Source: Myxococcales bacterium (GTDB lineage: Bacteria; Myxococcota; UBA727; VGSZ01). Taken from it: 63,627 nucleotides of DNA. How positions within the stretch are numbered: the stretch's first letter is position 1; every line of letters starts with the position of its first letter. The position numbers and the translations under genes were made by a program. Below are positions 7,639-19,017 of the stretch, piece by piece. A model generated the notes under the pieces. It saw only the letters and a program-made list of their open reading frames with translations. It had not been told where the DNA came from and did not search any database. The DNA lies in NCBI GenBank assembly GCA_023248635.1, contig JAHFED010000033.1, forward strand, positions 1 to 63,627. Reading direction: 5' to 3'.

Positions 7639-8238
7639 CTACGCCTTGGTGGGGGGAGCGTGAAGGGTGAGGCCGCGCAGCACAAGGTCGAAGGCCGACT
7701 TGGTGCGCCGGGCGAGGCGGAGGGGATCGCTCACGCGGCCCACCACGAACATCACGGTGGCGGTGTGGAGATCGAGGAGGATGCGAGCGACTTCGTCGAC
7801 GTCGAGGTCGGGCCGAAACCGCCCCTGTTCGATGCCGATCTCCAGCACTTCGACGATGGGCTTCATGCCGATGCTGCGCAGCTCGTCGAAGCGGTCCTTG
7901 AGCTCGGGGAGCACCTCGTGGTGGCCGCCCATCAAGAGCTCGCGCACCAGCGGTCGCTCGTCCATGGTCGCCAACGACGACAGCGCCAGCTCGGTCAGCA
8001 GCTGATCAGCCGGACGCCGGGGGTCGATGCGCTTTTGCAGGGACGCATTCCAGTCGCGCACCTCGCGCAGCAACACCTCGTAAAAGAGGTCCTTCTTCGA
8101 CGCCGCCGCGAGGTAGACCGTGCCTTTGCCGACGCCGGCGCGCCGAGCGATGTCGTCGACGCTGGCCTTTTGGAAGCCCAGCTTTGCGAAGCACTTGCAG
8201 GCCTCGCTCAAAATCGACTCGCGCTTGGCGGCTTCCAC
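7639..8238 (-). CDS. TetR/AcrR family transcriptional regulator
   Basis: N-terminal TetR HTH ILSEACKCFAKLGFQKASVDDIARRAGVGKGTVYLAA. Confidence 0.85.
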   Translation of the reverse strand: MEAAKRESILSEACKCFAKLGFQKASVDDIARRAGVGKGTVYLAAASKKDLFYEVLLREVRDWNASLQKRIDPRRPADQLLTELALSSLATMDERPLVRELLMGGHHEVLPELKDRFDELRSIGMKPIVEVLEIGIEQGRFRPDLDVDEVARILLDLHTATVMFVVGRVSDPLRLARRTKSAFDLVLRGLTLHAPPTKA

Positions 8239-8321: not shown

Positions 8322-8440
8322 GCCCGGCCTGAGGGCAGAGAATTGTCTACAGGTTCATCGCCTGGCGGCGATGAATTCACCGACAGCGCTGCGCGTGTCG
8401 GTGAATTGTCTACAGGTTCATCGCCTGGCGGCGATGAATT
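8322..8440. repeat. Modular palindromic intergenic repeat, copy B (leader plus 1.6 modules)
   Basis: gcccggcctgagggcagag + gaattgtctacaggttcatcgcctggcggcgatgaattcaccgacagcgctgcgcgtgtcggt + gaattgtctacaggttcatcgcctggcggcgatgaatt. Same family as copies A and C. Confidence 0.8.
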
Positions 8441-9215: not shown

Positions 9216-10220
9216 TCAGCGGGGGCGCAGGCGCGACAGGGCGCGTTTGGCGTCCTTGAGCTTCTCGGCCTTGGGGTAGGAACTCACCACCTCGTCGTAG
9301 AGGGCTTCGGCGAGGGCGGGCTCACCCAAGGCTTCGTGGGATTGGGCCATGCCGAACAGCCCGTCGGCGATCTTTGGGCTGCGGGGAAAGCGCGCGGGCA
9401 ACTTTTGCCAGGCGTCGATGGCTAAGCGGTGGTCGCCCTTTTGTTGGTGGCACCAGCCGATCCAATACAGGGCGTTGTCGGCGAGGTCGTGGGTCGGGAA
9501 GCGGCCGACGACGTCTTCGAAGGCGGCGATGGCCTCTTGGTGGCGGCCCTCTTTGAGGCGGGCTTGTCCCCAGGCGTAGAGGTCCGATGCCGACGACAGG
9601 GCAGCCAGGGGGTCGGCGTCGTCGGCCTCCACCGTGCCGCGCTGGTCCCCGCTCATGCGCAGGGTGACCGCACCCTCGTCGCTGTCGTCGACGATGTCGG
9701 CAACCACCTCGGGTGTAGGTGCACCGCGCTCGATGTCGATGCTGGCCTGCCGATCGGGCTCGAGGTCAATGGGCTGTTGCTCGCCGCGCGGCATGTCGAA
9801 GCGCAAGGGACGGGGCCGCGGCGGGCCGGCCGGCGCGGTGTCTGCGCGGGCGACCAAGAGAGCGAGCTTGCTGTCGACGTCGACGATCTTCTTTTCGAGC
9901 CGGGCCACCCGATCGCGCAAGAGCACGACCTCCGGATCAGGAGCCGCCGTCGTCGTCGTCGTCGGGGCCGCCGCGGTCGGCGTGAAGCAGGCGCCGGTGA
10001 GAAGGACGAGGGCGGCACCAAGGGTGTGGCTGAAGCCTGGAGGGCGCCCCCCACCGTGCCCGCCAGCGGCCGACGTGTGGTCACATCTCCCCCGGCCCCT
10101 GGGGGGAGATGGCTTGCTTTGAGCATCGAGAAAGGACGGATCGCCAGCCGTTGCGGGAGAGGGTCGCCGCTGCGGCGGGGTGAGGGGACCGTTGGACGAG
10201 CTCGAGTGGTGACGGGACAT
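9216..10220 (-). CDS. TPR-repeat lipoprotein, YbgF/CpoB-like (coiled coil + C-terminal TPR)
   Basis: Lipobox-like LLTGAC, coiled coil (LRDRVARLEKKIVDVDSKLALL) and C-terminal TPRs (YAWGQARLKEGRHQEAIAAFEDVV...ALYWIGWCHQQKGDHRLAIDAWQKL). The true start is uncertain. Confidence 0.5.
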   Translation of the reverse strand: MSRHHSSSSNGPLTPPQRRPSPATAGDPSFLDAQSKPSPPRGRGRCDHTSAAGGHGGGRPPGFSHTLGAALVLLTGACFTPTAAAPTTTTTAAPDPEVVLLRDRVARLEKKIVDVDSKLALLVARADTAPAGPPRPRPLRFDMPRGEQQPIDLEPDRQASIDIERGAPTPEVVADIVDDSDEGAVTLRMSGDQRGTVEADDADPLAALSSASDLYAWGQARLKEGRHQEAIAAFEDVVGRFPTHDLADNALYWIGWCHQQKGDHRLAIDAWQKLPARFPRSPKIADGLFGMAQSHEALGEPALAEALYDEVVSSYPKAEKLKDAKRALSRLRPR

Positions 10221-10357
10221 GCCAGGCTAGGGTGCTCCGCGCCGACATCTCGCGCAAATTCAGTGCTCTGCCGGTCGGCCACAATACCAGCGGATGTGCG
10301 CTGACCCAGGCTGCCCGCGGTCGACGTCGCAGGCGTCGTCGGACTAGCTTCGCCGCG

Positions 10358-13291
10358 ATGCGCGACTGGCTCCTCGATGCGCTGCAGATCCGCGAAGGAG
10401 AGCTTCGTCGGGTGTCGAGCCTCGCGCTCTATCTCGTGCTCGCCGTCTCGACCTTCATCACCGGCCGCATCGCGCGCGACGCACTCTTTCTGACGGCCTT
10501 TCAGAAGGAAGACCTCGCATACATGTACATTTCGGTTGCCATCATGGTGCCGATTCCAGCCTATCTTTTTGCGCGCATCGCCGATCGGTTTCGGCGGGAC
10601 AAGATGCTGGTCGTCACGTTGATGGCGACGGTCGTCTTCATGGGCGTCGTGCGCGGCTTGCTCCTTTCGAAGCAGCCCTGGGTCTACATACTACTGTACA
10701 ACTTCGTCGAAATCTACGGCACTTTCCTGATCCTTCAATTCTGGACATTCGCCGGCGATTTGTTTTCCTCGCGCGAAGCCAAGCGCCTATTTCCCATCGT
10801 CTCAGCCGGCAGCGTCGTCGCCGGCATCGTCTGCGGTCTGGCGGTCTCGGGACTGGTGCGGGCCATTGGCACCGACAACTTGCTGCTGGTGCAGATGGGC
10901 CTGCTCTCCCTCGCTGCCGTCGTCATCGCGCGCCTGGGGCATGCCGAGCGTGGGCGCCTGCGCGAAGCCGTCGTCAAACAACATGTGGGGCCGCGGCGAA
11001 AGACCAAGCCCGAGTTTCACGTGCGCGTCGAGACCAAGGGCGTCTTTCAGAGCAAGCACCTGCGCATCATCGCCGCGATGACAGTGGCCACCTTCGTGAC
11101 GGTGCCGCTCATCGACTACCAGTTCAAGGTGTTGGTGAAGGAACACTTCACCGCGGCCGCAGCTGCCGGCGGCCCTGGCGTCGTCGACACCGACGCCATG
11201 AGCGCGTTCATGGGGCTGTTCTCCGCCGTCACGGGCGTCATCGCCGCCGTCATGCAGCTCGGGTTCACGGGCCGCATCCTCGAGCGTTTCGGCGTGGTGT
11301 TTTCGCTGCTGCTCTTGCCCTTCACCCTGCTCGCGGGCCTGTTGTCGATGCTCGGGGGATTGCTGCAGGCCTTCGCCGCCGCCGTATTCACCAAGGGCGC
11401 CGAGAACTCATTTCGCTACAGCATTTATGATGCGACCATGCAGGTTCTATACACTCCAGTGCCATCAAATGTGCGCGGGCGCGCCAAGACCGTGATCGAC
11501 GGGATCATCAAGCCCGTCGCCGGAGGATTCGCTGGAGCTGTCATGGTGCTGCTGGTGGGTCCGATGCATGTGCCCGTCACCAGCCTTGGTGCTGTTGCTG
11601 TTGCTTTGGTCTTGTGCTGGGTCGCGCTGATTTTTCGCATGCGAGGGGAGTACGTCAAGGAGCTCTTGGCCACGCTGCGCAAGCGCAAGCTCGACTTCAC
11701 CGACAGGAACCTGGTCATCAACGACGTCGCGGCTGTCAACGTCTTGCGCCAGCGCTTGAGCTCTCCCGAGGATGGCGAGGTGAGAAATGCCATCGAGCTC
11801 TGCCGCCGGGTGCAGGGCCACGATCTCTCGCCTGAGCTCGCGCGCTTGCTCGAGCACAAGAATCCAGAGCTGCGCATCGGTGCCCTGGAGATCCTCGGCA
11901 CCCGGCATCTGGCCGTGGACCTGGAGCTGATCGAGGCCCGTTTCAACGACGACAACGACGACGTCCGCGCTGCCGCCATTCGGGCTTTTTGCGCGCTGGT
12001 GGGCGAGCCGGCCGTCGCCATCGTCGAGCCTCATTTGCGCAGTGCCTCGCCCGCGGTGCGCGGGGCAGCCGTGGCCAGCATCATCCGCCACGGCGGCCTC
12101 GAGGGCATTCTCCACGCCGCCGACGACCTCAAGGCCATGCTGTCCTCTCAGGATGAGAGCGTTCGCTATGCCTGCGCCCAGGTGCTGCAAGAGGTCGGCT
12201 TTCAGCGCTTCTATGCACCCGCCCAGAAGCTGCTTGCCGACGAGAGCCCGCGGGTGCGCACCGCCGCTATCGCTGCCGCCGGCGCCATGCGCGCTCCTGA
12301 GCTCGTGCCCACCCTCATCTACAAGTTGCGCCACAGAGACACCCTGCGGGCCGCGCAGATCGCCCTCGCTCAATACGGTGACGAGGTCATCGAGACCCTC
12401 GATCGTGTGCTGGCGCAGCCCAAAGAAGACCCGACCTTGCGCCGGCAGATCCCGCGCATCCTCGAGCGCATTGGCAGCAAGCGCGCCCTCGAGATCTTGA
12501 TGCAGCACCTCGACGTCGACGACGGCGAGACCCGCAAAGAAGTCGCGCGGGCCACCTCGCGCCTGCGGGAGCGCCTCGGAGCCACCATCGACGAAGCCCG
12601 CGTCAAGAGGCTCGTCGTCGTCGAAGTGCAGCGTCACTACCAGCTGCTGGCCATGGTCTTTGACCTGCGCGAGCTCGCCGACGACCCCCGCGATCTGCTG
12701 CGCGATGCTCTCGACGAACGCCAACGCAAGAGCCTCGACCGCATCTTCCGCCTGCTCGCCACCGTGCACCCACCCAAGGCCATCGAGACCATCTGGGGCA
12801 ACCTGACGTCGTCGGCGCCGGCCCTGCGGGCCAACGCCGTCGAAGTGCTCGACAACCTGCTCGACGCCGACGACAAGCGCCGCCTCTTGCCCATCGTCGA
12901 AGCCGCTGGTGAGCGCAGCCTCGACAACGCCGCCGCCAACCGGGCTCTGGAGCGCGTGCTCGAGCGCGGCACCGAGCTGTACACCCTAGAGCGCAAGAAG
13001 CCCGAAGAGTGGTTGCAGGAGCTCTTGCGCGGCGACGACGAATGGCTGTGCGTCTGCGCTCTGCACGTGGTGAAGCAGTTGAGCCAGCGGCGCCTCATCG
13101 ACGACGTCGCCGTGCATGTGCGCGCCCGCTCGCCGCTCGTCCGCGAGACTGCCTTCCTGTCATTGGGCGTGCTCGATCAGCCGCACCATTTCTTGAAGCG
13201 CTGCGCGGGGATCGAAGACGAAGACGTTCGGGTGCAACGGGCTTTGGTGCACCTGCGCGCCGAGGCCGAGAAGGCGTTGGCGGCGGCGTAG
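10358..13291 (+). CDS. TLC (ATP/ADP-translocase-like, Npt1/Npt2-type) membrane transporter domain fused to C-terminal HEAT repeats
   Basis: The N-terminal ~460 aa have multiple TM helices and resemble the TLC family (ITGRIARDALFLTAFQKEDLAYMYISVAIMVPIPAYLFARIADRF). The C-terminal ~500 aa carry repeated HEAT-like units (PELRIGALEILG; DVRAAAIRAF; PAVRGAAVASIIRHGG; ESVRYACAQVL; PRVRTAAIAAAGAM). I took ATG 10358 (MRDWLLD) as the start. Confidence 0.65.
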   Translation: MRDWLLDALQIREGELRRVSSLALYLVLAVSTFITGRIARDALFLTAFQKEDLAYMYISVAIMVPIPAYLFARIADRFRRDKMLVVTLMATVVFMGVVRGLLLSKQPWVYILLYNFVEIYGTFLILQFWTFAGDLFSSREAKRLFPIVSAGSVVAGIVCGLAVSGLVRAIGTDNLLLVQMGLLSLAAVVIARLGHAERGRLREAVVKQHVGPRRKTKPEFHVRVETKGVFQSKHLRIIAAMTVATFVTVPLIDYQFKVLVKEHFTAAAAAGGPGVVDTDAMSAFMGLFSAVTGVIAAVMQLGFTGRILERFGVVFSLLLLPFTLLAGLLSMLGGLLQAFAAAVFTKGAENSFRYSIYDATMQVLYTPVPSNVRGRAKTVIDGIIKPVAGGFAGAVMVLLVGPMHVPVTSLGAVAVALVLCWVALIFRMRGEYVKELLATLRKRKLDFTDRNLVINDVAAVNVLRQRLSSPEDGEVRNAIELCRRVQGHDLSPELARLLEHKNPELRIGALEILGTRHLAVDLELIEARFNDDNDDVRAAAIRAFCALVGEPAVAIVEPHLRSASPAVRGAAVASIIRHGGLEGILHAADDLKAMLSSQDESVRYACAQVLQEVGFQRFYAPAQKLLADESPRVRTAAIAAAGAMRAPELVPTLIYKLRHRDTLRAAQIALAQYGDEVIETLDRVLAQPKEDPTLRRQIPRILERIGSKRALEILMQHLDVDDGETRKEVARATSRLRERLGATIDEARVKRLVVVEVQRHYQLLAMVFDLRELADDPRDLLRDALDERQRKSLDRIFRLLATVHPPKAIETIWGNLTSSAPALRANAVEVLDNLLDADDKRRLLPIVEAAGERSLDNAAANRALERVLERGTELYTLERKKPEEWLQELLRGDDEWLCVCALHVVKQLSQRRLIDDVAVHVRARSPLVRETAFLSLGVLDQPHHFLKRCAGIEDEDVRVQRALVHLRAEAEKALAAA

Positions 13292-13301
13292 CGCAGGGGG
13301 A

Positions 13302-14111
13302 TCAGGCCGGTCGTGCTTGCCCGCCTGGGTTGGTGAACAGTGGCAACAAGGTGACCATCGCCGACGTCAGCGCTCCCACCAGAGCGGCGGCGATGGCGAT
13401 GACGAAGACGCCCACGAAGGTCGGCGGGTGGGCGCCATTTTCCAGCATCAACGCGTAGATGGTGCCGGCGATGACGATGAAGACCGCCGGAAACGCAGAC
13501 TTGCGGGGGATGCCCCGTTGCAACACCAGTTGGAGCAAGAGCAACAGGGCAGCGGCACCGGCGACGATGATCATGGGGGGGTCGGCGGGACGCACCAAGA
13601 TGTGCAGCGGCCCCACCAGCGCGCCGCTCTCGGTGCTCAGCTTGAGGTGAAGGGGGTGACCCTGGGCCTGAGCGGGCAATCCGTGGCCACGTTCCATCTG
13701 GGCGACGACGACCTGCGCGTGTCCCCGCCGGCCCATGCGGCGACTCTCGAGGTGTTGCTCGAAGCGGCCGGCGATGGGGGGCAGCGTTTCACCGTCGGCG
13801 TCGACGTCGATGACGTAATCCCCGCTGGCGGCGCCTTGTTGCTGAGGATCGAAGGCACCCGAGACGACGACGACGGCGGCCTGGTTGATGGCCGGCACGT
13901 CGAGCGTGCCGAGCCGGGGCAGCTCACCGCTGGCCAGCGCTGCGCCCGGAGCAGCGACGTCGAGGCCGATGATCGCGGCCCCCACGCTGGTGGCCAGGGC
14001 GACCCCAGCGACGAGGGCCCGACGTTGTTGACGACCACTGAGGACGGTGCGGGCGACCAACAAGCCGGCCAACGCAGGCAGCACGACGGCGACGGCGGCG
14101 ACGATGTTCAT
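13302..14111 (-). CDS. hypothetical membrane protein
   Basis: N-terminal TM (MNIVAAVAVVLPALAGLLVA), a soluble middle segment, and two C-terminal TM helices. Start placed at ATG 14111. Confidence 0.35.
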   Translation of the reverse strand: MNIVAAVAVVLPALAGLLVARTVLSGRQQRRALVAGVALATSVGAAIIGLDVAAPGAALASGELPRLGTLDVPAINQAAVVVVSGAFDPQQQGAASGDYVIDVDADGETLPPIAGRFEQHLESRRMGRRGHAQVVVAQMERGHGLPAQAQGHPLHLKLSTESGALVGPLHILVRPADPPMIIVAGAAALLLLLQLVLQRGIPRKSAFPAVFIVIAGTIYALMLENGAHPPTFVGVFVIAIAAALVGALTSAMVTLLPLFTNPGGQARPA

Positions 14112-14213
14112 GGGCACTCCGTTTCTGGTGCTCGGACAAGCACCTCCGCCCGTCAAGCGCCCGCCTCGATGTTCGGGGGCAGACACAAGCGAACGTCACA
14201 GAAAGTGCCGGGA

Positions 14214-15614
14214 TCAGGTGTTCGGGGTGCGGGCGGCGCTGATCCCCGCGGGGAAACCCGCATGCCCGCCATCGTCCATGAACTGCCATTGCGCGCGGTT
14301 GTGGGCGTTGGGCCCCGAGCCGTAGCGGCGATAGCTGCTGCCATCGCTGCCGGTTTCCATGGGGTTCTCGTTTGCCCGCGGCCCGCCGACGTCGACGTGT
14401 CGGAAGCGGCTGCCGAAGACGCTGGCGTCGCCGAAGTGGGCATCGCGGCCGGCGTCGTTGGTGCCGCGGAAGAAAGCGACGTCCTGGGCTGCTCGGCCGT
14501 TGTCGGTGTCGGCCCAGCCACGAATGGCGCTCTCTTGGCCGTAGAGGCAGTCGAGCAGCTCGAGGCGATCGGCGCGCAAGCCGGCGCCGTCGGGCTGGTG
14601 CCGCAGAGCCGAGGCAAGGGCCTGACCTCCGGCGGAGTGGGCAGAGACGACCTGGGTGCCGACGTTGCTGATGCCGGCGCTGGCGAGGGCGCTGTCGGTG
14701 GTGGCGGCCTGCGAGCTCACGTTGCCCCAGTCCGTGTGGTATTGGCGGCGCGAGGCATTGTCGCGCGTCGACAACATCAAGCGCGTGTTGCTGCACTCCG
14801 GCAGCACGAAGACGGTCTGCGGATCGGCGGCTTGCACCTCTTGGATGCGCACGGTGCCGCCGCCGGCGCTGCCGCGGGGCTCGGCAACGGTCCCGTTCCA
14901 CCCGTGATAGTGGGTGTGCACGCGGGCGGGCTGAGCAGGGTTGAAGCCTGGGGGAACGACGGTGAGCACAGGCTGGCCACCGTTGCCCTCGGGATTGCTC
15001 ACCACCAAGCGTCCGCCACGCGTCAGCGTGTCTCCAAAGTTGGTGCGCGCGTTTTCGATGGTGTTGGCCGTCCGTTGACCCGTGGAGCCGCTGGCGCGCA
15101 GGTCGGCGAGCTGCTGGGGCGTGACGGTGGCGACGTCGTAGCCGTTGCTGACCGTGGTGGCAGGGCCGGTGGGGCCGATGGCAGGGGCGGTGGGGGTTGG
15201 CGTCGTCGGGTTCGGCGTCGGCGCGGCGGGCAAAGGCGGGTCTCCCCGGCGGGCGGGCGGATTCCCCACGGCAGTGGCGGCTTGGGGTGAAGGCGACGCA
15301 GGCGTGCGTCGCAGCTCGCGCAGGGTCTCGGGGCCAACGATGCCGTCGCGGGCGATGTGCTGGCGCGTCTGGAAGGCGAAGACGGCGTCGTGGGTGGCGC
15401 GATCGAAGCGTCCCGTCACGGGTAGGTTCAACTGCGACTGCAGCTCCGAGACTGCCTCGCCCCTGCTGCCTTCGTGCAGCCAGCCCGCGCGCCCACTCTG
15501 GATCTGCCGATCGAGGGCCCCCGGCGTCGACGCAGCCGGCGCCGTCGGCGTCGGGTCTTTGCTGTGCGAGCTGGCAGGGACACCGCCGGGGCGAACGCTG
15601 AGGGGGTCGGTCAT
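14214..15614 (-). CDS. peptidoglycan-binding (PG_binding_1) domain protein with Pro/Thr-rich linker and uncharacterised C-terminal domain
   Basis: N-terminal segment GSRGEAVSELQSQLNLPVTGRFDRATHDAVFAFQTRQHIARDGIVGPETLREL matches the PG_binding_1 pattern. The rest is unassigned. Confidence 0.5.
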   Translation of the reverse strand: MTDPLSVRPGGVPASSHSKDPTPTAPAASTPGALDRQIQSGRAGWLHEGSRGEAVSELQSQLNLPVTGRFDRATHDAVFAFQTRQHIARDGIVGPETLRELRRTPASPSPQAATAVGNPPARRGDPPLPAAPTPNPTTPTPTAPAIGPTGPATTVSNGYDVATVTPQQLADLRASGSTGQRTANTIENARTNFGDTLTRGGRLVVSNPEGNGGQPVLTVVPPGFNPAQPARVHTHYHGWNGTVAEPRGSAGGGTVRIQEVQAADPQTVFVLPECSNTRLMLSTRDNASRRQYHTDWGNVSSQAATTDSALASAGISNVGTQVVSAHSAGGQALASALRHQPDGAGLRADRLELLDCLYGQESAIRGWADTDNGRAAQDVAFFRGTNDAGRDAHFGDASVFGSRFRHVDVGGPRANENPMETGSDGSSYRRYGSGPNAHNRAQWQFMDDGGHAGFPAGISAARTPNT

Positions 15615-15733
15615 GTTGGCTCCTGGGCCTGGGTTATCGCCCGGGCGCTCGCAGGGTGCTCGATCCTCGGCGTGGGTCGTCCCGATGGCTGATGAGCGCT
15701 GCCCCTACACGTCAGCGTCGAGGCGTTGCTGGG

Positions 15734-17110
15734 TCAGCGGCCAGCAAGGGCCCAGGCGAGGCCCGGCGCGCACGAGAGCACGATGACGGCGAACAAAAGC
15801 AGACCGGTGGCCGTCAGCGCGCCGAAGGTGCTCTGGCTGCGGGTCTCGCTCGCCTGCGCGAAGAGATCGGGCAGCAGGCGCAGGTAGTAGACGATGCCCA
15901 AGACGCCGCCGACGGCCGCAATCGACGTCGCTGCTGCGCCCCAACTGCTCCAGGCTGCTTGCAGGATGGCCAGCTTGGTCCAAAAGCCGGGAAAGGGCGG
16001 CACACCGGCCAGCGAGAGCAGGGCGACGATGAGGCCGATGGCGCGCGCGGGTCCGAGCTGCACGCTGCCGCCCGGCTTGAAGGCCGACAGGGGCAAGGCG
16101 CCAGTGCCCGTGCCGGCGAGACAAGCAAAAGCCAGCAGAGCCGCAGCGCCGTAGCCGACGACGTAGAAGGCCACCGTTTGGGTGCTACCTCCCAGTGCGC
16201 TGCTGCCGCTGGCGACACCGAGGGCAAGGAAGCCCGCGTGGGCGACGGCGGAGTAGGCCAGCAGGCGGCGCAGGTCGGTCTGGGCGAAGGAGGCGACGAC
16301 GGCGAAGGAGATGGTGACCAGTCCGATGCCCAGCATCGGCACCGTGAGGACCTCTCCCGCTCCCGAGACCACGCGGGCCAGCGCGATGGCCGCACCCAGC
16401 TTCGAGACCACCATGATGAAGCCGACGAACGACGACGGACCCGCGGTGTAGGCGTCGAGGGCGCCGAAGTGCACCGGCACCACCGCGAGCTTGAAGCACA
16501 AGCCCACCGCAAAGAGGCCGACGCCGACGACGGCGAAGGGTCGCATGCCGGCTGCTACGGCTCCCAGGGCGGGGACGTCGAGCGAGCCTGTGGCCAAAAA
16601 GCACAAGGACATGCCGAACAAGAGGGTCGCGAAGGTCACGGCGGTGAGCACGAAGTACTTGAAGCCGGCCTCGAGCGGACGTTGTCCCTGGCCCAAGGAC
16701 ACCAGCGCGGCGCCAGAGAGAGAGAGCATCTCGACGCCCAGCGCGAGCTCAAGCAGGTTCTTGCCGTCGACGAGGACGACGGCGCCGATGCCCCCGACCA
16801 AGAGCAGGGCGGCTGCCTCGGGGGTCTGCCGACGTTCAAAGAGCTCCGCCGACGACAAGAGCAACATGCCGATGACGAGGACGCCGCCGGTGGCCACCAG
16901 GCCGAGACGCGCCAACCCGGCCTCTTGCATGCCCAAAAGGATGGCGGCGACGGCGACGCCGATGCCGATGCCGGCGGGAATCACGCGCGAGCGATCGATG
17001 CGCGGCGCGAGACCGAGCACCAACAAGCAGCCGACGACGAGGACGACTTCGGCGGCGTGGGTCAGCGACATCATCGTGCCCGGGAGCCAGGGCAGGGGAA
17101 CACCGTTCAT
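15734..17110 (-). CDS. nuoN: NADH-quinone oxidoreductase subunit N (NuoN/ND2 antiporter-like subunit)
   Basis: 14-TM antiporter-like subunit with LAYSAVAHAGF and FKLAVVPVHF motifs. At 458 aa it fits NuoN better than NuoM. Start overlaps the nuoL stop by 4 nt. Confidence 0.75.
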   Translation of the reverse strand: MNGVPLPWLPGTMMSLTHAAEVVLVVGCLLVLGLAPRIDRSRVIPAGIGIGVAVAAILLGMQEAGLARLGLVATGGVLVIGMLLLSSAELFERRQTPEAAALLLVGGIGAVVLVDGKNLLELALGVEMLSLSGAALVSLGQGQRPLEAGFKYFVLTAVTFATLLFGMSLCFLATGSLDVPALGAVAAGMRPFAVVGVGLFAVGLCFKLAVVPVHFGALDAYTAGPSSFVGFIMVVSKLGAAIALARVVSGAGEVLTVPMLGIGLVTISFAVVASFAQTDLRRLLAYSAVAHAGFLALGVASGSSALGGSTQTVAFYVVGYGAAALLAFACLAGTGTGALPLSAFKPGGSVQLGPARAIGLIVALLSLAGVPPFPGFWTKLAILQAAWSSWGAAATSIAAVGGVLGIVYYLRLLPDLFAQASETRSQSTFGALTATGLLLFAVIVLSCAPGLAWALAGR

Positions 17111-19017
17111 GGCTGGGCTCCCGGCTCAGGGCGTGGCTTTTGGGGTCGGGGCGGGCCGTCGACGGGTGCGCCAAAGGGCGACGTCGGACGAATGCGCGGT
17201 TGTTTCTTGACCCCTTCGCGAATGCGGGGCGCAATGTCTTTGGCGCCACGTTCCTTCTTCGGACGCGGTGGGGCCTCACCCGCGCGCTGGGGCAGAGCGG
17301 CGGAGGGAGTGCGCAAGGTCAGGCCGCCGACGACGGCGACGCCCAACATGGTGATGAGCAGGTAACGTCCCACGCGCCCCGAGTGGATGGCAGCCACGCC
17401 CTGGGGCAGCACCTTGAGCTCGGACACCAGAGTGCCCGCGAGCAGCCCTCCTGGCACCGGCAGCCCCTTTTCGGGTCGCTGCGCCAACCAGCGACCGACG
17501 ACGACGAAGCCTGCGGCTCCCAGGGCAAAGGCACCGAGTCCCAGGGCCGTCGGCATGATGTGGACTTCGGCGCCGGCCTCGGCAGCGTGCAGCACTGACT
17601 TGCCCACGAGGGTGGAGAGCAGGTGCGTGCCCGCCTCGAAATAGCCGAGCACGACGGCGCCGACGGCCAGAGGGATGAGGGGAAGATCGAAGCCGCCCAG
17701 ATGCCCCGCGTGCTCATGGGCATGCTTGCTGGCCGAGCCTTCGACGCCGTGGAAGAGCCCGAAATAGAGGCGGCCGGCGTAGGCCCCCGTGACAAGCGCC
17801 CCCACCATCAGGGCCCAAGACACCCAGGGCGCGCCGTGGTGCTGTGCAGCTTCGAGGATGGCGTCTTTGGAGAACGACCCCGAGAGAAAGGGCGTGCCGA
17901 TCAAGCACAGCGATCCAATCAGAAAGAACGCGTGCGCGCCCTTCAAGTGCTTGCGGAGTCCGCCCATCTTGCGGATGTCTTCTTCATGGTGGGCGGCGTG
18001 GATGATGGTGCCCGCCGACAAGAAGAGCATGGCCTTGAAGGCCGCGTGGGTGACGAGGTGAAAGAAGGCGGCAAAGGGAGCGCCGACGCCGACGGCGACG
18101 AACATCCAACCCAGCTGCGACGCCGTCGAATAAGCGATGCCGCGCTTGAAATTGGTCTGCCACAGCGAAGCCAATCCGCCCAAGAGCGCGGTGCTCAGGC
18201 CCGTGACGACGACGACCGTCATGATTTCGGGGGTGAGGGCCAGCAGGGGCGACACGCGCACCAGCAAATACACGCCGGCAGCGACCATGGTGGCGGCGTG
18301 AATGAGAGCAGACACTGGCGTCGGACCGGCCATGGCCGCGGGCAACCAGAACCACAGGGGTCCCTGGGCGCTCTTGGCGCAGGCGGCGATGACGAGGCAC
18401 AGCGCGATCAAGGTCGCGCCTCCGGTGGCATGGGGCGCAGTCGTGGCCAGGCTGTCGAGGGCGCCGGCGCCGACGGGCATGGCGACCGCCGCCACCAGCA
18501 GAGCCGCGTCGCCGATGGCGTTGGCGCCCAGGGCGAGGAAGCCGGCCTGCAGCGGTTCACCGCGCTGCCACCAAAAGGAGATCAACAAGAACGAAGCGAT
18601 GCCGACGGCGGTCCACCCAGCCAACAAGACCGTGAGGTTGCCGGCGACGACGAGCAAGCACATGGCGGCGACGAAGAAGTCGAGGAAGGCGAAGAAGCGG
18701 TGGGCCCGCTCGTCCTCCTTCATGTACGCGATGGCATAGACGAACACGCAGGAGGCAACGCCGCCGACGACGGCCAACATCACTGCTGCCAAGCCGTCGA
18801 CGCTCAAGCGAAAGGCGCTGTCGGGAAGAAAAGGGATCCAACCCTCGTGCACGACAGAGACGGTCTGGCGGTCGCCGAGCAACCACACCAAGGCGGCAGC
18901 CAAGATCGCCAGCGGTCCGACGAAGCTTGCGGCCCCTGGCTTCTTGGGAAAGCCGAAGACGTTCAGCACCAAAAAGGGCAGCGGAAAGAGAAAGCACCAC
19001 GGCAGCAGAGTGGTCAT
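17107..19017 (-). CDS. nuoL: NADH-quinone oxidoreductase subunit L
   Basis: NuoL signatures (AWTAVGIASFLLISFWWQRGE; PTPVSALIHAATMVAAGVYLL; AYSTASQLGWMF). Start at ATG 19017 (MTTLLPW); the upstream 118 codons of the track ORF run into nuoK and are not coding. Low-complexity C-terminal tail. Confidence 0.85.
   Translation of the reverse strand: MTTLLPWCFLFPLPFLVLNVFGFPKKPGAASFVGPLAILAAALVWLLGDRQTVSVVHEGWIPFLPDSAFRLSVDGLAAVMLAVVGGVASCVFVYAIAYMKEDERAHRFFAFLDFFVAAMCLLVVAGNLTVLLAGWTAVGIASFLLISFWWQRGEPLQAGFLALGANAIGDAALLVAAVAMPVGAGALDSLATTAPHATGGATLIALCLVIAACAKSAQGPLWFWLPAAMAGPTPVSALIHAATMVAAGVYLLVRVSPLLALTPEIMTVVVVTGLSTALLGGLASLWQTNFKRGIAYSTASQLGWMFVAVGVGAPFAAFFHLVTHAAFKAMLFLSAGTIIHAAHHEEDIRKMGGLRKHLKGAHAFFLIGSLCLIGTPFLSGSFSKDAILEAAQHHGAPWVSWALMVGALVTGAYAGRLYFGLFHGVEGSASKHAHEHAGHLGGFDLPLIPLAVGAVVLGYFEAGTHLLSTLVGKSVLHAAEAGAEVHIMPTALGLGAFALGAAGFVVVGRWLAQRPEKGLPVPGGLLAGTLVSELKVLPQGVAAIHSGRVGRYLLITMLGVAVVGGLTLRTPSAALPQRAGEAPPRPKKERGAKDIAPRIREGVKKQPRIRPTSPFGAPVDGPPRPQKPRPEPGAQP

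Follow-up and report, generated by a model that had tools for sequence, protein, structure and literature searches.

The gene at 10358..13291 (+) of the window, as the whole analysed stretch of 63,627 nucleotides is called here, is an ordinary member of the published and widespread NTT-HEAT family, whose architecture was already known. The assignment of family and architecture is close to certain. The best overall explanation, which we regard as probable, is a regulated NTT-HEAT transporter of a nucleotide-like anion with a regulatory or docking HEAT arm, and the mechanistic part of this explanation is put forward tentatively.

According to Major, Embley & Williams (2017, Genome Biol Evol 9:480; PMC5381601), the NTT-HEAT proteins of bacteria are monophyletic and "very broadly conserved", with Deltaproteobacteria among the groups that have them. 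The window gene carries the NTT and HEAT (PF13646/PF02985) domains in a single ORF, with HEAT at the C-terminus of NTT. The homologue search returned at least 120 full-length fused protein clusters, down to 33% identity, and the architecture was common to all homologues among the matches listed. The fusion was also present in 320 species-representative genomes. The first-pass annotation had considered the architecture unusual, a judgement that does not survive the 2017 description and this distribution. Close relatives are already labelled "Npt1/Npt2 family nucleotide transporter" at NCBI, and relatives "ATP/ADP translocase/HEAT repeat protein" at JGI. Residues Y57, R139, D253, R306, Q362 and K385, which are clade-specific, were common to relatives down to 28% identity (Nitrospira, Zixibacteria); this residue pattern is consistent with membership of the NTT-HEAT clade.

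Gene, assembly support and domain organisation

The ORF extended over 10232..13291 (+), and the ATG at 10358 yielded a 977-aa product with its stop codon at 13289-13291 (Table 1). Both start and end were matched by an independent gene caller, in agreement with the coordinates given in the first-pass annotation. The fusion can hardly be an artefact. Misassembly, a frameshift that united two separate genes, and a generic MFS protein mistaken for TLC were each considered and rejected; no supporting point was found for any of them. The identical 977-aa protein was recovered from two assemblies made separately, ENA ERZ27276474 and Logan SRR14366783, one entry of the homologue list was 100% identical to it, and GC3 was 0.83 over the whole ORF. 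The two halves, whose separation by a stop or frameshift in relatives would have refuted the fusion, stood in one ORF throughout the clusters and genomes counted above. The Pfam TLC profile (PF03219) scored 87.0 bits at aa 91-432 (cut-off 21), whereas MFS_1 reached 23.2 bits, under its cut-off of 33.4, so that the transporter half was TLC-specific rather than generic MFS.

Table 1. Features of the NTT-HEAT gene and its immediate surroundings in the window.
Feature	Position	Strand	Basis
TPR gene (YbgF/CpoB-like), divergent neighbour	9216-10220	-	gene positions
Intergenic region, 137 bp, common to NTT-HEAT gene and divergent TPR gene	10221..10357	.	gene positions
NTT-HEAT gene, complete, 977 aa + stop codon	10358..13291	+	ORF list, independent gene call, identical protein in two assemblies
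TLC/NTT transporter domain, aa 1-441, 12 TM helices, MFS-type fold	10358..11680	+	Pfam, hhalign, AF2, Foldseek
Y57 codon; aligns to AtNTT1 K155, Lys -> Tyr	10526..10528	+	hhalign + hmmalign census
E118 codon; aligns to AtNTT1 E245, kept	10709..10711	+	hhalign + census, E in 80/93 ORFs
D253 codon; aligns to AtNTT1 E385, acidic kept as Asp	11114..11116	+	hhalign + census, D in 90/93 ORFs
K385-G389 codons; G389 aligns to AtNTT1 K527, Lys lost	11510..11524	+	hhalign + census
Interdomain linker, aa 442-456	11681..11725	+	AF2 pLDDT <50 at aa 444-449; sole low-confidence stretch of model
HEAT_2-type solenoid, aa 457-745, about 9-10 hairpins, cytoplasmic	11726..12592	+	Pfam, alphaRep matches, motif spacing, AF2, topology
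Solenoid continuation, C-terminal, aa 746-977	12593..13288	+	AF2 all-helical, pLDDT mostly >90
Convergent gene, directly downstream of NTT-HEAT gene; not cNBD	13302-14186	-	ORF list

The region 10221..10357 presumably holds the promoters of both divergent genes. No sigma-70 consensus was found in it, and a promoter/terminator scan around the NTT-HEAT gene gave nothing exceeding shuffle expectation. The divergent TPR neighbour was kept in an 87%-identical relative. The window contained no second NTT-HEAT copy; tandem paralogue pairs were seen in 14 of 79 related loci.

The transporter half belongs to the TLC/NTT family (TC 2.A.12) of secondary transporters, with 12 helices in an MFS fold and a place in the inner membrane, and transport activity is predicted for it. 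The AF2 model of the full protein (pLDDT 92.5, pTM 0.82) comprised 12 TM helices, with helices across residues 16-441 mostly at pLDDT >90, followed by an all-alpha solenoid. Its five best Foldseek matches in the PDB (9j3m, 9j3l, 9j3j, 9j3n and 9j3o; target-normalised TM-scores 0.62-0.71) were NTT translocators, which ranked ahead of generic MFS proteins, and hhalign against AtNTT1 and C. pneumoniae NTT1 (CpNTT1) gave a probability of 99.8% over 414 columns. TM12 extended into a conserved cytoplasmic helix (EYVxxLLxTLRxRRLDF). The loop motifs DRFRRD (loop 2-3) and GRILERFG (loop 8-9) look, as read from the sequence, like MFS gating motifs. With 24 K/R in inside loops versus 4 in outside loops, the positive-inside rule supports an N-in/C-in topology and a cytoplasmic HEAT arm, as the first-pass annotation had supposed.

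Substrate-site residues of the transporter half

Mutagenesis by Trentmann et al. in 2000 is said to have shown that four charged TM residues of AtNTT1 matter. We take these intramembrane residues to be K155, E245, E385 and K527, numbers that fit the AtNTT1 sequence, which was checked against PDB chain 9j3j_A and matched it at 100% identity across residues 19-501. As reported second-hand in a later article, mutation of K527 selectively impairs ATP import (Trentmann 2000, cited in PMC1951785). The equivalent positions were surveyed with hmmalign over 93 NTT-HEAT ORFs from 79 genomes, and two of the four canonical charged residues were kept in the window protein (E118 and D253) while two were replaced (Y57 and G389). 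Position 57 was Y in 87 of the 93 ORFs; AtNTT1 and CpNTT1 each have K there. Position 389 was I, G or Q, with K in none of the ORFs, and position 385, one helical turn earlier, was K or R in 84 of the 93, where AtNTT1 has N523. In the "CKEM" motif, the Lys was replaced by a hydrophobic residue and the Glu by Gln in NTT-HEAT ORFs. The charged or polar intramembrane residues R37, R40, E118, D253, K257, R353, Y354, D358 and Q362 were invariant or almost so.

These residues bear on the possibility of a canonical ATP/ADP (NTP/NDP) counter-exchanger, like Npt1 of Chlamydia and Rickettsia or plastid NTT1, that would take up ATP from outside the cell, such as that released by lysed prey, with the HEAT tail as an accessory. 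Such a role would fit the TLC family match, the ATP/ADP translocators found as nearest solved structures, and the many motifs common to NTT-HEAT and canonical NTTs (RDxKD-like R37/R40/D41, Y114, E118, W129, EAKRLF, R353-Y354, D358 and K377); relatives likewise clustered in Myxococcota and Bdellovibrionota, two predatory phyla, in a sample biased towards the query. We nevertheless judge it improbable. The replacement of K155 by Y57 and of K527 by G389 (Gly, Ile or Gln across the family) makes an ATP/ADP exchanger unlikely, and the altered "CKEM" Lys and Glu point the same way. With 78.8 bits, the protein fell far short of the 387.2-bit cut-off of the NCBIfam model for NTP/NDP exchange transporters (TIGR00769), and free-living autotrophs, among them Nitrospira and cyanobacteria, carry NTT-HEAT too (genome search and PMC5381601). 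The protein is thus probably no classical ATP/ADP antiporter, and as both ATP-linked Lys residues are replaced family-wide, a different substrate or transport mode is predicted. The first-pass annotation was fair in its caution that the substrate is not readable from the sequence; a transport assay on any NTT-HEAT protein was not found in the searchable literature.

The HEAT-repeat arm and a probable cNMP-binding partner in relatives

The C-terminal half matched Pfam HEAT_2 (PF13646; 108.5 bits, cut-off 27.7, in 5 stretches) and HEAT (PF02985; 58.2 bits, cut-off 23.5), which, together with the TLC score, bears out the reading of a TLC/Npt-type transporter joined to a solenoid of some 500 aa. 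VR-type repeat helices recurred with a period of ~31 aa (aa 475, 505, 536, 567, 602, 633, 661, 823, 928 and 959), and a loose motif was seen six times in the C-terminal half versus 0.5 expected (maximum of 4 in 2000 shuffles), in line with the xVRxAAxxAL-type repeats noticed earlier. By sequence, the HEAT part matched alphaRep proteins in the PDB, the best E-value being 1e-26, and the Foldseek matches also included the PP2A-A subunit, karyopherins and SF3B1. The NblB equivalog (36.1 bits versus a cut-off of 300) and CpcE (12.6 versus 330) models were not reached. Residues 746-977 gave no Pfam or family match at E<=1; their conserved motifs included RANAVEVLDNLLD and W896, and N826, E829 and W896 were invariant among homologues. 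Mean identity to homologues was 0.51 for the TLC domain, 0.49 for the HEAT part and 0.39 for aa 746-977.

HEAT solenoids typically serve as protein-protein interaction scaffolds, and the first-pass annotation had suggested that this one may gate or tether the transporter. For NTT-HEAT, linkage to a cNMP-binding domain (cNBD), downstream or fused, was described by Major et al. 2017 (PMC5381601). This was the most informative context of the gene, and one that the first-pass annotation had no means of seeing. Among the 69 relatives with assessable loci, 45 possessed a small dedicated cNMP-binding gene. It was adjacent in 26 loci and some 2 kb downstream in 13; in three more it was fused, and in another three it lay at a different place in the locus. 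In a 55%-identical relative, the cNBD was fused at the C-terminus. These partners formed a close-knit family, with scores of 148-225 bits against the profile built from them. No cNBD of the partner family was found throughout the 63.6-kb window. Two other cNBD genes were rejected as partners: the one at 62810-63592, the sole cNBD in the window and considered as acting in trans, was generic (48-51 bits versus 148-225 for true partners), and an upstream gene in a related locus (L083) reached 67 bits on the partner profile. Where the partner gene is unlinked, as in the window lineage, the transporter may be a version without cNMP control, or the partner may be encoded elsewhere.

A docking patch specific to cNBD-linked members was also sought, with 0 discriminating columns and no regional difference; as no column was conserved solely in those members, the HEAT arm bears no sequence mark of a docking surface. 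All-against-all ORF clustering over 80 loci gave no conserved neighbours beyond sub-clades, where ROK (14 loci), DUF1571 (13) and LysM (11) genes recurred, none of them in the window.

The scaffold-like arm raises the alternative of a "transceptor" or membrane anchor, in which the TLC half would sense or bind a ligand, or act as a tether, while the HEAT repeats recruit cytoplasmic proteins to the membrane. In its favour, the HEAT half is about as conserved as the TM half, HEAT solenoids are typical interaction scaffolds, with examples such as karyopherins among the structural matches, and a dedicated cNBD partner, as often found in relatives, hints at a role in signalling. Set against this, near-invariant charged or polar residues within the membrane are typical of substrate or ion coupling, and these, with the gating-like loops, indicate a working alternating-access machine; a transceptor or anchor without transport is accordingly doubtful.

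Proposed function and comparison with known systems

In the favoured reading as a regulated transporter, the transporter half would work by alternating access on an anionic solute that is nucleotide-like or phosphorylated in some other way. Its binding cavity would combine acidic E118 and D253 with basic R37, R40, K257, R353 and K385, both Lys residues of ATP/ADP exchangers being absent. TM12 is modelled as running directly into the cytoplasmic solenoid of about 520 aa, which would serve as a regulatory or docking arm through which a signal or a partner protein in the cytoplasm acts on transport. For roughly two in three relatives, this partner is very likely the small, dedicated cyclic-nucleotide-binding protein whose gene follows directly or is fused; the window lineage would work without cNMP control or with a partner placed elsewhere. 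The low TIGR00769 score, the lack of a partner-family cNBD in the window, the lack of columns conserved solely in cNBD-linked members and the lack of any other conserved neighbour weigh against this reading.

A bolder proposal, which we consider unlikely as it stands, is that NTT-HEAT proteins form a distinct signal-gated transporter class of free-living bacteria that does not exchange ATP and ADP. Their remodelled cavity (Y57, K385, Q362) would carry a different solute resembling a nucleotide, perhaps a cyclic or signalling one, and the HEAT arm would relay to the gate the state of a bound regulator. For most lineages this would be the dedicated cNBD protein, and for that of the window a different regulator or none. 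If this were true, the window gene would be a natural "uncoupled" variant, helpful for dissecting how the HEAT arm acts.

The discovery value of the gene itself is small, as the architecture is published, widespread and routinely annotated. Chlamydia trachomatis, cyanobacteria and oomycetes all have conserved members of the family, and its function is a family-wide question. The Lys pair replaced across the family and the pairs of members with and without a partner make that function easier to test: the cNBD partner, found in about two thirds of relatives and missing in the window lineage, provides natural with/without pairs for experiments.

Compared with known systems, the window gene resembles the NTT-HEAT proteins of Major et al. 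2017 (PMC5381601) in domain order and in phylum spread, including Deltaproteobacteria/Myxococcota. In contrast to many NTT-HEAT relatives, neither the window copy nor the relatives nearest to it (at least 72% identity) have a partner cNBD linked to them. AtNTT1 (PDB 9j3j/9j3l/9j3m, of which 9j3l is ATP-bound and 9j3m ADP/Pi-bound) and CpNTT1 (9j3n/9j3o), the best structural matches of the window protein, have the same 12-TM MFS-type fold and share with NTT-HEAT the equivalents of E245 and E385 and many motif residues. However, identity to them is only about 16-20%, the window protein has other residues in place of K155, K527 and the Lys and Glu of "CKEM", and the cytoplasmic HEAT solenoid is additional. 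The arm shares its ~31-aa helical hairpins and D..VR.AA..AL signature with alphaRep designs, NblB, CpcE/F and MTH187, but in contrast to those HEAT_2/PBS-lyase-type proteins, the window protein has its repeats anchored to a transporter in the membrane, and they continue into another ~230 aa of divergent repeats.

The fusion gene and its surroundings

The NTT-HEAT gene occupied a single open reading frame in which the ATG at 10358, the start given in the first-pass annotation and also chosen by an independent gene caller, yielded a 977-aa product. An identical protein (P0001) occurred in two separate assemblies, an 81-kb contig of an ENA metagenome and a Logan run, and GC3 was 0.83 across the whole ORF, a value typical of genuine genes at the 67% GC of this sequence. 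In Pfam searches, the protein scored 87.0 bits for TLC (PF03219; cut-off 21), 108.5 bits for HEAT_2 (cut-off 27.7) and 58.2 bits for HEAT, while generic MFS_1 was not reached (23.2 bits; cut-off 33.4). Between aa 475 and aa 959, VR-type repeat helices followed one another at ~31-residue spacing, and a loose version of the repeat motif put forward in the first-pass annotation had six occurrences in the C-terminal half (0.5 expected from shuffles). The proposed TLC-HEAT fusion is thus real, at the coordinates first given, and far above chance, with an N-terminal domain of the TLC type rather than a generic MFS domain, and an artefactual fusion is refuted, with a negligible probability. The description was correct, yet not new, the exact protein being already in public databases.

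The gene looks monocistronic in the window (see table). The position of the downstream membrane protein gene was the same in both assemblies of the contig but was not conserved at related loci. Farther genes of the window encoded a peptidoglycan-binding protein, Nuo/Mrp-type subunits, a TetR regulator and an MscS channel. When all ORFs from 80 loci were clustered, a cNMP-binding gene was the only conserved neighbour.

Two identical 38-nt copies of a direct repeat (GAATTGTCTACAGGTTCATCGCCTGGCGGCGATGAATT), their starts 63 nt apart and each including the palindrome TTCATCGCC-TGGC-GGCGATGAA, precede the start of a TetR-family gene by 100-200 bp and, given this location, may be a paired operator. 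At L082, the locus of an 87%-identical relative, a gene 3 kb downstream of NTT-HEAT on the same strand encoded a 1124-aa protein with 7TMR-DISM, HisKA, HATPase, receiver and guanylate-cyclase domains; this could be a cyclic-nucleotide link or a coincidence, and no equivalent stood beside the NTT-HEAT gene in the window.

Coordinates of features in the window and at related loci
Feature	Locus	Position	Strand	Remarks
TetR-family gene	Window	7639-8238	-	
38-nt repeat, first copy	Window	8340-8377		
38-nt repeat, second copy	Window	8403-8440		
TPR (YbgF/CpoB-like) gene	Window	9216-10220	-	Divergent, upstream; kept in 87%-identical relative
NTT-HEAT open reading frame	Window	10232..13291	+	
Hydrophobic membrane protein, 294 aa (269 aa as called)	Window	13302-14186	-	Convergent, downstream; without Pfam match
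cNBD gene	Window	62810-63592	-	Sole cNBD gene of window; stand-alone, ~156 aa counted from MLRPTSEDL
1124-aa protein gene	L082 (GCA_030685175.1)	13865-17239		
Sub-clade operon	L022	3095-11202		
Sub-clade operon	L047	5764-14037		

Fold and topology of the two halves

The protein combines a 12-TM NTT-fold membrane domain with a HEAT solenoid in the cytoplasm that is attached to TM12, and both are conserved. The AlphaFold2 model, obtained from a 96-sequence alignment, was confident (mean pLDDT 92.5, pTM 0.82) and comprised twelve long helices (aa 16-441) and an unbroken all-helical solenoid (aa 457-976), with a short linker (aa 444-449) as the sole low-confidence stretch. TM12 extended as a conserved cytoplasmic helix, EYVxxLLxTLRxRRLDF, in which Y432, L436 and L440 were invariant. 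Based on the model helix boundaries, 24 Lys/Arg residues fell in predicted inside loops and 4 outside, the central loop holding 12 by itself, which indicates an N-in/C-in protein and bears out the cytoplasmic placement of the HEAT domain anticipated in the first-pass annotation.

The top five Foldseek matches in the PDB were all NTT1 structures from cryo-EM, of Arabidopsis or Chlamydia pneumoniae (target-normalised TM-scores 0.62-0.71), with SV2A, ferroportin and other generic MFS proteins ranking below. Structural matches of the C-terminal half were to alphaRep designs, PP2A A subunit, SF3B1 and karyopherins, and alphaRep proteins were also hit at the sequence level. Across 95 homologues, mean identity to the 977-aa protein reached 0.51 in the transporter and 0.49 in the HEAT region that Pfam detects, falling to 0.39 in the final 230 residues; constraint on the HEAT arm is thus comparable to that on the transporter.

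The NTT-HEAT family and its cNBD partner

The architecture, initially considered unusual, is that of a family which is already in the literature, occurs widely and is annotated as a matter of routine. The same 'NTT-HEAT' fusion was reported by Major, Embley and Williams (2017; PMC5381601) from Cyanobacteria, Deltaproteobacteria, Chlamydiaceae and other groups; they termed it 'very broadly conserved', recovered it as monophyletic with a bootstrap of 100, pointed out that a cyclic-nucleotide-binding domain often comes after it or is fused to it, and gave its function as unknown. No functional study was found in the literature search; two later papers only cite that work. In the protein database, TLC and HEAT co-occurred in at least 120 full-length clusters (100% to 33% identity), under names such as 'ATP/ADP translocase/HEAT repeat protein' (JGI) and 'Npt1/Npt2 family nucleotide transporter' (NCBI). 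When one genome per species was scanned with two peptide patterns only, relatives turned up in 320 genomes; the majority were Myxococcota or 'Deltaproteobacteria' MAGs, and others came from Bdellovibrionota, Nitrospira, Zixibacteria and Desulfobacterales. Tandem NTT-HEAT pairs occurred at 14 of 79 loci.

Genetic coupling to a dedicated cNBD was family-wide. At many loci NTT-HEAT was accompanied by a small cNBD protein (about 140-170 aa), its gene lying on the NTT-HEAT strand no more than 150 bp downstream (26 loci), ~2 kb downstream with DUF1571 and ROK genes between and often tandem NTT-HEAT paralogues before (13 loci), fused (3 loci) or elsewhere in the locus (3 loci); it was missing at 23 loci whose available sequence extended 700 bp or more downstream, and 10 further loci were left out of the count as not assessable. 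A 55%-identical relative (P0047) possessed a C-terminal cNMP_binding domain. The partners formed a tight family, Nitrospira and Zixibacteria included (148-225 bits on their own profile, against 37-44 bits for unrelated cNBDs of the same loci). A sub-clade operon of tandem NTT-HEAT paralogues, DUF1571, a ROK-family protein and cNBD was seen at L022, L047 and 11 further loci, and its linkage to ROK and DUF1571 might offer a hint of substrate or regulation within this sub-clade.

No linked partner was present in the window or in the closest relatives (L001, 77%; L002, 75%; P0003, 87%; P0007, 72%). The only cNBD gene of the window was ruled out as partner, since its 48-51 bits on the partner profile mark it as generic. 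The closest partner-bearing relatives were 57-60% identical to the window protein; loss or relocation of the linkage within this sublineage would be the simplest explanation. A whole-protein comparison yielded 0 columns conserved solely in partner-linked members and no regional difference, so the sequences do not reveal a docking surface. Evidently, the arm has a function independent of cNBD gene linkage, or the partner is encoded elsewhere in the partner-less genomes. The HEAT arm may be a regulatory or docking platform that in most lineages probably receives the cNBD protein, whose docking would make transport cyclic-nucleotide-responsive; the window's lineage has kept the arm without a linked partner.

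The substrate site compared with canonical NTTs

The AtNTT1 sequence used was 100% identical to PDB chain 9j3j_A (residues 19-501), and the CpNTT1 sequence was taken from the same comparison output. The NTT-HEAT transporter profile aligned to both with 99.8% probability over 414 columns, and the residue mapping was the same in an hmmalign census that covered 93 ORFs (79 genomes). Mutagenesis by Trentmann et al. (2000) reportedly showed the importance of four charged intramembrane AtNTT1 residues, which we take to be K155, E245, E385 and K527; all four numbers hit the named residue of the verified sequence under one offset.

The two acidic residues were retained, as E118 (E245; 80/93 ORFs) and as Asp at D253 (E385; 90/93). 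K155 was replaced by Tyr (Y57; 87/93), and K527 by Gly in the window protein and by Ile, Gly or Gln, never Lys, in the family. A conserved Lys/Arg stood at position 385, one helical turn before the K527 equivalent (84/93), where AtNTT1 has Asn. PMC1951785, which cites Trentmann et al. (2000), states that mutation of one conserved lysine selectively decreased ATP import and not ADP import.

We infer that the domain is a true TLC/NTT-fold transporter whose substrate site has been remodelled. That the protein is a canonical ATP/ADP exchanger is unlikely, given the loss of both lysines and a score of 78.8 bits on the NCBIfam NTP/NDP exchange transporter model (TIGR00769; cut-off 387). That it is a non-transporting receptor or scaffold is similarly improbable, given its invariant intramembrane charged residues. 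The membrane domain would rather be an alternating-access carrier of a nucleotide-like anion other than the ATP/ADP pair; such a substrate is plausible, as several intramembrane basic residues are kept. Replacement of K155 and K527 throughout the clade, together with naturally occurring lineages that have or lack the partner, makes the function of the whole family accessible to experiment.

AtNTT1 and CpNTT1 resemble the NTT-HEAT protein in fold and in many motif residues (R37, R40/D41, Y114, W129, K142, R353-Y354, D358, K377 and D381), whereas K155, K527 and the Lys and Glu of 'CKEM' are theirs only, the latter two giving way here to a hydrophobic residue and to Gln362 (82/93). Conversely, ADRFRRD (loop 2-3) and GRILERFG (loop 8-9) of the NTT-HEAT protein are, by inspection, putative counterparts of MFS 'motif A'-type gating motifs, which the canonical NTTs appear to lack.
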